Virus record (IMG/VR): IMGVR_UViG_3300039320_000013
DNA: 17,767 nt
Strand: one strand, 5' to 3'
From: a virus
Taxonomy: Duplodnaviria > Heunggongvirae > Uroviricota > Caudoviricetes
Of this stretch, positions 15,001 to 17,767 are shown piece after piece. The position numbers are program-made. Position 1 is the first letter of the stretch. The number at the start of each line of letters is the position of its first letter.

Positions 15001-17767
15001 CGTCCGGTTTCTTCCACCATCGCACCGGACCAGCGACCATGAGGGGACAACGCCGCGCTCCGTTAACGCGGTAAACCCCGGTGTGTATCGTTTTTGATTA
15101 TCCCCGCACACTCGCGCAGAGGAGTCTCCCTGTCGGGCTGCGGTCTCTGTTAATGCGGGGATACGGCGACAATACCGCGCATCAGCAAAACTTATTTCAG
15201 GCACTGAGTGCGGATATATTCCTGCGCCACTTCCAGCTGCTTCTGCATCAGCATCAACCGCTCTCTGAGAGTGAAATAATCCCGTTCAGCGGTGTCTGCC
15301 AGTCGGGGGCCGGTTGCATTATCCACGCCGGAGGTGCCGGTGGCTTCACGCACGGTACCGGGGCAGGTGGCGTTGATCCGCAGGCGCTTACGACCAGCGG
15401 CAACATCAGCGCGCAGAGTTTCATTTTCAGCTCTCGCATCGGCTAATTCCCTCGAGTATCTGGCATCAAGTGCAGCAACATCACGCTGGCGCTGCTGCAT
15501 ATCAGTAATGGTTGCATTTGCCAGCTCCAGCTCTCTGGCTTTTTTATCGCGCTGCGCTTTGTAAGTGATGGCGTTATCGCGGTAATGATTCAGCCCCAGA
15601 CTAAGCGCACCACAGGCCACCAGCAGAGCAATGATGACCACACACAGAACGCGGTTCATTTCACCACCAACGGATTGCCCAGATCAGAACAGCAATGGCT
15701 ATAATACGAATGGCAAAGGCTGCCGCTCTTGTTAAATCCAGACAGGCTGGCGTCTCCACTTCAATGCCTTTCATAATGGACAACCTCAGAAAGAATCTTT
15801 TATACTTCCTCACAGGGAAAGCACCTCCCTCACCATAATTTCTCCCTTGCCTTACTCAAGGTCAGAAAACACAAAACCCCGCTTGCAGCCAACAAACGGG
15901 GTTTTTACTTTTATTCACTTAGTTTTTGTCAGTTCGCAGGATTTCGTGTTATCCGCCCGCGTGGTCATTCCTCATTTTTCAGCAAAATATTCTGCTTATC
16001 TGTCGATACCCCAGCACGCCAGCGCGCTCTCCTGGTCACGACGGGATACCTGACCGTAACAGTTATTTGAGCGAATACGGCAGTCTCTGCCACCGTCCTT
16101 AATCCACCAGCGAATCGCTTCGCAGGCACCTTTTCGATCACCTGCATTAATTCGTCTGTAAAACGTCGACGGGAAACACTTACCGGGACCAATGTTGTAC
16201 GGACAGAATGACGCGATCCCCGCTTTCTGGGGTTCGGTCAGCGGCACTCTGATGTTTTTCTCCACCCACGCCAGCGCTTTATCACGCTCAATGGCGTTAA
16301 CCTGGTCGCATTTTTCCTTCGACAACTTCATGCCCGGAACGACAGGTTTGCCATCCACCATGATGGCACCACGGCAGATGGTCCAGATACCTGCACCATC
16401 ACGGTATGCCGTGGTGTGGTTGCCTTCCTTTTCATCCAGAAACTGGTCGAGAATGTCAGGCGCAGGCGCACCAGCGGCAATCAGCGCCAGAACGGCAGCC
16501 GACAGGCCGTATTTGATTTTGGTGTTCATGGATATATTAAATATTCAGCCGCTGTCCCTGGCCCACTAAATACGCACTTTAAGATAAGTCAGCCCCGGAT
16601 GAAGCCAGTAAGCCGGCACTTTTTTAAAGGGTGGAGTATTAAAATCACGAAGAAGAGCCTCCCGCACAATTGCATCCTTATCAGCACCACTGGCCAGCGC
16701 TTCAATCTCAGCGGCTACCTGAAGATATCCCATGCAACGGCCAACGCGCTTCATCAGCCCCTGCTTTTTATTGTTCTTCAGGTAATCAATGGCAAATTCA
16801 ATGAGCTCCTCACTGTGCTGGTGCGATGGAGGTGTTACTTTCCCATTTTCTGAGATGGTTATTTTCCCAGCATCACCGGATACAACAAAGGATGGCCGGT
16901 TACACTCCCATTCCAGCTCACTGAAATTATCATTATGAATACTGAAACACTCTGCGAGATTTCTGCTCATCACTTTCCGACAATAATCGTCAAACGCAGC
17001 AAACTGCTCATCGCGGCGTTTTTCTTCAGGCCGCTGAAGATGCTCTTTCAATCGTGAAGCGCAGCTTAGATGCCCGCGCGATCAAGAATAGCTTCTTTCA
17101 TTTCATCTGCTGCAAGCACCTCATTTTTTGTTGGGGCGCTTTTTTTCAATTCAGCGATATAGCGCTCCAGTTTTTCAATACGTGATTCAACATCATCTTT
17201 TTCTGACCGCAGTGTTGACGGCGGCATCTTCAGAGCATCAGTAATTCTTCCCGGTAGCTTTCCTTTGTAGGTTATCAACACATCCTGCGCCTCTAAAATT
17301 ATGGGGCGCTTTTCCGGCAACGGTTCGTTCCCTTCACATAACCCGGCAGCAACATCCATGAAAAACTGCTTCGCCTGCTTTTTCGCCTCAGCTTCGTAAA
17401 ACTCCAGCGTGGCACCTTCAGTACGGTCAAGACTAATCGCCACATTTGGCAACAACAGTGACGGATACCCACCAATTTCCAGTACCACAGTAACAGTAAT
17501 CTTATCCGGGTAATTATTTATCCCTTTAACAACCAGGGTAATGACTCCAACTTATTGATAGTGTTTTATGTTCAGATAATGCCCGATGACTTTGTCATGC
17601 AGCTCCACCGATTTTGAGAACGACAGCGACTTCCGTCCCAGCCGTGCCAGGTGCTGCCTCAGATTCAGGTTATGCCGCTCAATTCGCTGCGTATATCGCT
17701 TGCTGATTACGTGCAGCTTTCCCTTCAGGCGGGATTCATACAGCGGCCAGCCATCCGTCATCCATAT

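Follow-up and report, generated by a model that had tools for sequence, protein, structure and literature searches.

A SAR endolysin and spanin cassette next to IS1 in a lambdoid Escherichia coli prophage: an ordinary lysis module whose holin very probably lies just beyond the insertion

The DNA analysed here is the 17,767-nt virus record IMGVR_UViG_3300039320_000013 from IMG/VR (Duplodnaviria; Heunggongvirae; Uroviricota; Caudoviricetes), referred to as the window, and the subject of this report is its lysis region, which borders on a partial copy of the insertion sequence (IS) IS1. Coordinates are window positions, and every relevant lysis-region gene lies on the minus strand. In the direction of transcription the window holds the right end of IS1, two open reading frames (ORFs) designated A and B, the gene (R) for an endolysin of the signal-anchor-release (SAR) type, a terminator-like hairpin, a small membrane ORF and the spanin genes Rz and Rz1 (Table 1). 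A first-pass annotation had described this region as a SAR endolysin and spanins without a holin, with IS1 upstream in the orientation of the late operon, and the profile matches agree with that description: PF00959 for the endolysin, PF03245 and PF06085 for the spanins and PF03400 for IS1. The last 231 bases of the window are the right end of IS1, whose inverted repeat (IR) begins at 17537 (GGTAATGACTCCAAC / GGTAATGACTCCAACTTATTGATAGTG), and the element is oriented like the lysis and morphogenesis genes of the late operon.

A six-frame stop-to-stop scan of 16530-17536 returned one hydrophobic stretch, located in an out-of-frame ORF of 38-41 codons inside B. This ORF (16589-16705, minus strand) starts at TTG, reaches a Kyte-Doolittle (KD) value of 2.22 and carries two arginine residues within the stretch. 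It was rejected as a holin and considered spurious, since a stop codon in phage Stx2-86 shows that it is not conserved. As this sole candidate is not credible, the first-pass statement that no membrane ORF exists between the endolysin and IS1 stands. B itself stops 36 bp upstream of R, is hydrophilic as had been noted (maximum KD 0.75), and was also rejected as a holin, being hydrophilic and the out-of-frame tail of a DUF1327 gene.

The sequence beyond the window was approached through near-identical genomes. Megablast of 14400-17767 against complete E. coli genomes identified 13 chromosomes that match 14400-17536 at 99.6% identity or more, and every match ends at window position 17536. In one of these, the IS1-free AR_0017 (L001), a 71-aa class II holin lies directly upstream of A, its stop codon 4 nt before the ATG of A. 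No record spanning the IS1 junction was found in 5,426 complete RefSeq E. coli genomes (megablast, window 17380-17767), and a 35-mer junction pattern had no match among GTDB species representatives. A lookup of the IS1-truncated A protein identified the same junction in CP049609.1 (L009), in UGAB01000002.1 (L010) and in three short metagenome contigs. CP049609.1 shows 1 mismatch to window 11066-17767 (6.7 kb). Both genomes with the identical junction carry an intact 71-aa holin gene, S, whose stop codon lies 31 bp from IS1, and in both the far side of the element reads holin stop-AGCG-ATGAAGAAAAAATACGAACTGGTTGTT, IS1 (768 bp), CTGGTTGTTAAAGGG. The IS1 in CP049609.1 is a full-length element of 768 bp with terminal IRs, insA/insB' and a 9-bp target duplication (CTGGTTGTT), flanked by ...GAACTGGTTGTT on one side and CTGGTTGTTAAAGGG on the other. 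Apart from the 9 bp duplicated at the target, the site is unchanged, and the insertion is a simple transposition without deletion.

The holin matches PF04971 ('Bacteriophage P21 holin S') at E 9e-33 over 63/64 profile positions, and its sequence agrees with S of phage Stx2-86 at 100% identity. Its sequence, MYQMEK...KIREDRRKAARGE, begins with a dual-start motif (MYQM, Met1 and Met4) and has a charged C-terminus. Two transmembrane domains (TMDs) were counted by eye from the sequence of this class II holin, the hydrophobic TMD2 being WAAIGVLGSLLFGLLTYLT. The first-pass annotation had allowed for a holin located past IS1, A and B then being inserted between it and the endolysin, and had proposed examining the sequence beyond the window for a holin and Q/pR'. 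That alternative is very probably correct: in the two near-identical genomes the PF04971 holin lies 31 bp past IS1, and Q and a pR'-like site were found upstream of it in CP049609.1.

The locus is thus very probably an ordinary lysis module of a Stx-phage-like, stx-negative lambdoid E. coli prophage (Stx, Shiga toxin), recently split by a simple IS1 transposition, with the holin just outside the window. The apparently holin-less cassette results from the position of the window end together with the recent IS1 insertion. The insertion lengthens the distance between S and R by 777 bp (768 bp plus the 9-bp duplication) and disrupts no lysis gene. From the near-identity of the sequences we infer that the window's own genome would have the same far side of IS1 as CP049609.1 and UGAB01000002.1; past window position 17767 it should read IS1 (768 bp), CTGGTTGTT, ...TTCGTATTTTTTCTTCAT, holin stop. 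The cassette itself is of a type already known, the standard pinholin, SAR endolysin and spanin module of Stx-like lambdoid prophages.

The native gene order is Q, antisense porin, pR'/tR', tRNAs, tolA-like gene, nanS-p esterase, DUF1378, DUF826, S (a phage-21-type class II holin and predicted pinholin), DUF1327/YdfR gene, R, small membrane ORF and Rz/Rz1, followed by the packaging and head-tail genes. IS1 entered the already frameshifted DUF1327 gene after its first 22 nt, at a point 31 bp past the stop codon of the holin. By the established S21/R21/Rz paradigm, RNA polymerase modified by Q would start at pR', read through the terminators and the IS1 copies, and give RNA that runs from S across IS1 and the DUF1327 remnant into R, the small ORF, Rz/Rz1 and the morphogenesis genes. 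S, the pinholin, would then accumulate and depolarise the inner membrane, the depolarisation would free and activate the membrane-tethered SAR endolysin, murein would be degraded, and Rz/Rz1 would finally disrupt the outer membrane.

Table 1 Features of the lysis region in the window and of the late region upstream of it in CP049609.1 (L009); coordinates without a prefix are window positions.
Feature	Coordinates	Strand	Evidence or remark
IS1 right end: right inverted repeat (IRR) and C-terminal 69 codons of insB	17537-17767	-	PF03400 DDE_Tnp_IS1, E 1e-36; cut by window edge
ORF A, 5' part of DUF1327/YdfR-family gene	17066-17488, open frame reaching IS1 boundary 17536	-	PF07041, E 4.8e-27
ORF B, out-of-frame 3' part of DUF1327-family gene	16566-17051	-	phrog_1085; alignment to Stx2_95
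R, R21-type SAR endolysin, 177 aa	15996-16529	-	PF00959, E 2.4e-24; phrog_7 endolysin
Intrinsic-terminator-like hairpin and T tract, between R and small ORF	15863-15905	-	terminator scan of L009 11584-11616 (= window 15873-15905); RNA fold
Small single-pass membrane ORF	15661-15813	-	50 aa from GTG or 37 aa from ATG at 15774; phrog_4493
Rz i-spanin, 155 aa, N-terminal TMD	15192-15659	-	PF03245, E 1.7e-49; phrog_13
Rz1 o-spanin lipoprotein, embedded in Rz, other frame	15254-15439	-	PF06085, E 3.5e-21; phrog_3198
Q	L009 1571-1954		PF06530
Antisense porin gene	L009 2143-3225		
pR'-like promoter	L009 3434-3462		11/12 consensus matches
tR'-like hairpin	L009 3652-3673		
Second IS1	L009 3764-4531		8-bp duplication TACCGATG
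Methylase remnant	L009 4557-4790		
Two tRNAs, tRNA-Met(cat) and tRNA-Arg	L009 4831-4992		
tolA-like gene	L009 5271-5699		
nanS-p-like esterase	L009 6298-8259		
DUF826	L009 8616-8861		
S (holin)	L009 8938-9153		corresponding gene in L010
IS1 at S-A junction	L009 9185-9952		
Analogues at the slot of the small ORF, in other phages	L011 2474-2647; L002 3315-3612; L004 3175-3273; L015 3569-3715		

In an alignment with phage Stx2_95, A and B line up as the two parts of one 329-aa ORF that lies between S and R there. They had been treated as two separate genes; their placement between holin and endolysin was right, and the two genes are in fact one frameshifted gene. A 1-bp deletion between 17074 and 17073 creates the premature TAA that ends A, and is common to the window and the IS1-free AR_0017. 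The first 22 nt of the gene containing A (MKKKYEL...) were removed by the IS1 insertion; the ATG and Shine-Dalgarno (SD) sequence of the DUF1327 gene (GGGGAGAG) are visible in AR_0017 and CP049609.1, and it is this gene that uses the strong SD located at the end of S. Membership of the DUF1327/YdfR family follows from the N-terminal PF07041 domain, matched at E 6e-45 by the intact 329-aa form, and from the position between holin and endolysin. B matches positions 140-296 of the 296 positions of phrog_1085, all of which (1-296) are covered by the intact 329-aa Stx2_95 protein. B begins at a TTG without an SD (anti-SD duplex -2.5 kcal/mol) and is probably not translated on its own. The exact sequence of B occurs on 326 contigs, with a 329-aa YdfR-family protein as cluster representative, indicating that the frameshifted allele is common and older than the IS1 insertion. 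Because the two frames form one 329-aa ORF split by a 1-bp deletion and B has no SD, A and B are a frameshifted and IS-interrupted pseudogene of an accessory gene and not lysis genes.

R is homologous to the solved SAR endolysin R21 (3HDE/3HDF, E ~1e-16) and to DLP12 RrrD (4ZPU). It has a GH24/T4-lysozyme-like domain with the E-x8-D-x5-T triad, EGNHTTAYRDGAGIWT being readable in the translation. The N-terminal segment LSAAVLALIAAGAPAP is Gly/Ala-rich and weakly hydrophobic, with a maximum 19-aa KD mean of 1.74 (2.82 for the Rz TMD), and a transmembrane-like segment, weakly hydrophobic and Gly/Ala/Ser-rich, follows a short basic stretch in MNTKIKYGLSAAVLALIAAGAPAP; in YGLSAAVLALIAAGAPAP, 10 of the 18 residues counted from the sequence are G, A or S. 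Across all 177 aa R is near-identical to R of Stx2_95, Stx2-86 and PhiR5_1, and this Stx-phage endolysin family has been termed a 'predicted SAR' endolysin (PMC8136144). R lacks a recognisable SD, as the first-pass annotation had observed, its best anti-SD duplex being -1.7 kcal/mol versus -6 to -12.7 kcal/mol for neighbouring genes. The leader (16530-16565) is A/T-rich and conserved, is identical in Stx2_95, and its SD-less ATATCC-ATG context is common to Stx2-86 and PhiR5_1 (L002, L003 and L004 being the relatives compared at the same position). The premise that the missing SD signals decay is wrong for this phage group, because the leader is kept in the deposited genomes of Stx2_95, Stx2-86 and PhiR5_1, and the absence of an SD was rejected as a sign of decay of R.

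The spanins have the two-component architecture, an i-spanin with an N-terminal TMD (Rz, KD maximum 2.82 at residues 4-22) and an embedded o-spanin lipoprotein gene (Rz1), whose translation contains the lipobox VSAC and is proline-rich. In a search of 13000-17767 no Rfam match reached E of 0.1 or less, so that the spacers between R and Rz and between holin and R give no support for a non-coding RNA. On the 3' side of Rz/Rz1 are genes for a TonB_C-domain lipoprotein, DUF3950, HNH, TerS, TerL, a protease-capsid fusion, portal and tail proteins; past the lysis module the late genes of the window form an ORF series without breaks and with the expected PHROG functions. The lipoprotein gene (14527-14868, minus strand; lipobox LVMGC, TonB C-terminal domain) occupies the slot where lambda carries bor. 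Its family, phrog_1267, is labelled 'Rz-like spanin' in PHROGs, a label that looks mis-annotated.

According to published surveys, almost all Stx-type phages encode a predicted pinholin, a SAR endolysin N-terminally similar to R21, and Rz/Rz1 (PMC8136144; PMC10462455). The assumption that a SAR endolysin directly follows its pinholin fails in this group, in which a DUF1327 gene sits between S and R. The order S-DUF1327-R is found in K-12 Qin (essQ-ydfR-rrrQ-rzpQ/rzoQ), BP-4795, Stx2-86 and PhiR5_1, with the order S-ORF47(DUF1327)-R-ant-ORF50-Rz in BP-4795, and tblastn identified DUF1327 homologues in 100 phage records, so that the arrangement is not unusual. The module resembles Qin, BP-4795 and Stx2-86 in its order of holin, DUF1327/YdfR, endolysin and spanin, and the holin is the one shared with Stx2-86; it differs from them in carrying the DUF1327 gene in its long form of 329 aa, with a frameshift and the IS1 insertion, and from Qin also in that the Qin spanin belongs to another family (DUF2514). 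With the phage 21 cassette it shares the PF04971 holin with a dual start, the R21-homologous endolysin with a SAR-like segment and the embedded Rz/Rz1, and with Stx phages the location downstream of Q, pR', tRNAs and nanS-p. Unlike these cassettes, it has no stx genes, its S and R are separated by the DUF1327 remnant and IS1, and its R and Rz are set apart by a terminator-like hairpin and a small membrane ORF.

Several points weigh against a module that is intact and still at work. The window ends within IS1, and the holin was seen in near-identical genomes, outside the window's own sequence; the identity of the window to CP049609.1 is 99.7%, not 100%, over 10.6 kb. In the genomes with the junction, a second IS1 lies ~90 bp downstream of the tR'-like site. 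Strong polarity is a classical property of IS1, and the SD-less R would be preceded by ~1.5 kb of RNA that is poorly translated (insB', the A remnant and B). The prophage may also be defective for reasons unrelated to lysis, the portal gene being split.

A possible, if doubtful, rival explanation is that the holin is present and that IS1, together with the second IS1 upstream, terminates late transcription, leaving R, Rz/Rz1 and the morphogenesis genes silent upon induction and the prophage lysis-defective and cryptic. The sense orientation of IS1 in the late operon would suit such polarity, as would the two copies between the pR'-like site and R, the long stretch past insA without an efficiently translated ORF, and the split portal gene. 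That at least two isolates, as well as metagenome contigs, share the allele is consistent with a state that is tolerated and possibly domesticated. Against this, late transcription of lambdoid phages is Q-antiterminated and Q-modified polymerase resists terminators; Q-lambda is listed as a proven polarity suppressor in a recent review (PMC12360218). In the Sakai prophage Sp5, too, an IS is inserted upstream of the lysis region, and a derivative of Sp5 can still be transferred to K-12 (PMC2669165). Sp5 (O157 Sakai) resembles the present prophage in that its IS629-family insertion lies within the late transcription unit, upstream of lysis genes, and leaves every essential gene intact; it differs in the IS family and the exact position. 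IS1 hits no lysis gene here, solely a DUF1327 gene that was already frameshifted; no sense-strand intrinsic terminator was predicted inside IS1; and the downstream late ORFs are intact, collinear with IS1-free relatives and without decay. A literature search on IS1 polarity under Q antitermination returned general statements and no direct data. A block of this kind is doubtful given that Q antitermination would suppress polarity, and we infer that late transcription would cross IS1 and that the cassette would still work. A hybrid promoter made by IS1 and driving R was also considered and was rejected, no sense-strand promoter-like site being found at the IS1/A junction.

The late region upstream of the junction in CP049609.1 contains two IS1 copies in direct orientation, which differ by 1 nt and have their own target duplications (8 and 9 bp); both copies are also present in UGAB01000002.1. 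As both lie past pR' in the same orientation, late transcripts must cross the two. The pair brackets a 4.65-kb segment with the methylase remnant, tRNAs, tolA-like gene, nanS-p-like gene, DUF826 and holin, in the manner of a composite transposon. The same region has an OmpC/NmpC-like porin gene in antisense orientation, placed between Q and the best of the pR'-like promoters with its tR'-like hairpin (L009 1571-3673), an arrangement that resembles quuD-nmpC of DLP12.

The IS1 pair is a ready substrate for deletion of the holin, and a true loss of the holin in the window's genome, through recombination of the directly repeated copies and removal of a 5.4-kb segment with the tRNAs, nanS-p and S, was therefore weighed. 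The two same-orientation copies, 1 nt different, flank the segment in both CP049609.1 and UGAB01000002.1, and the window, which falls short of 100% identity with each of the two genomes, stops before the informative junction. Such a loss is nevertheless very improbable: no genome with the deletion was seen, both genomes with the junction keep the segment, and at window position 17628, the sole base that differs between the two L009 copies, the window has the base of the downstream, holin-proximal copy, so that nothing points to a recombinant.

The small ORF between R and Rz has a KD maximum of 2.13 and a strong SD at its GTG start (-12.7 kcal/mol), lies downstream of the terminator-like hairpin, and its stop codon overlaps the Rz start (TGAAATG). 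Its exact 37-aa sequence occurs on 723 contigs, its homologues are confined to Enterobacteriaceae (E. coli, Yersinia, Citrobacter), and phrog_4493, which it matches, is a family of unknown function. The 37-aa peptide, whose holin activity, if shown, the first-pass annotation had listed as a refutation of its reading, is not supported as a holin: it has no holin-family match in Pfam or PHROGs, and the cassette already has a canonical holin. A single TMD in 37-50 aa is not known as a holin topology class, which also counts against such a role. Sequence-unrelated or partly related small transmembrane ORFs occupy the same slot in Stx2_95, PhiR5_1, BP-4795 (ORF50) and phiSTEC1575-Stx2k; that of Stx2_95 is unannotated and also ends IRWW*, and that of phiSTEC1575-Stx2k comes after an M15 peptidase and before a 60-aa lipoprotein. 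It is conceivable, though rather unlikely, that the small ORF, coupled to Rz translation, belongs to an unrecognised positional class of endolysin-spanin membrane proteins in enterobacterial lambdoid phages and modulates lysis. SAR-endolysin release, pinholin triggering or spanin activity might be the step affected.

Also very improbable is a lysis that is holin-independent or relies on another holin, the SAR endolysin being freed spontaneously or by the 37/50-aa ORF in the manner of the Mu releasin, for although phage Mu offers a precedent with a SAR endolysin and a releasin in place of a holin (PMC9239132), and the small membrane ORF between R and Rz is conserved, single-pass and equipped with a strong SD, the cassette contains a canonical S21-type holin, the small ORF has no similarity to holin or releasin families in Pfam or PHROGs, and B is hydrophilic and frameshifted. 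Mu resembles the present module in its SAR endolysin (gp22) and two-component spanin (PMC9239132), and differs in that it has no holin and needs the DUF2730 releasin gp25, whereas a canonical holin is present here and no DUF2730 protein was found.

Outside the lysis region, the portal gene is split into ORFs of 454 aa and 353 aa with a 4-nt overlap by a G5 run (window ~7709-7730, minus strand; G run ~7723-7728). Phage vB_EcoS-705R7 has a G6 run and a single fused portal ORF, annotated from an internal GTG as 778 aa. The split form is marked 'frameshifted' by PGAP in AR_0017, and many Stx prophage records annotate two portal genes; a true defect, programmed slippage and a difference in sequencing are all possible causes of the split. 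Internal repeats with the motif ...PVPRDGRDYDPEVLQ.AVNDAV...PADGKS.T.DDVRPM.EQMV.DAVSH occur in the 3' portion of the portal-associated ORF (~7105-7487, minus strand), and most differences between the window and CP049609.1 cluster there.

Beyond correct annotation, an ordinary pinholin, SAR endolysin and spanin module with IS1 between S and R has little significance. Were IS1 shown to be polar despite Q antitermination, the prophage would offer a modest natural case of an IS element domesticating a prophage. In this phage group, accessory genes (DUF1327 genes, ant, small membrane ORFs) have their insertion slots at the S-R and R-Rz junctions, and intactness should be judged neither by holin-endolysin adjacency nor by the presence of an SD on R.

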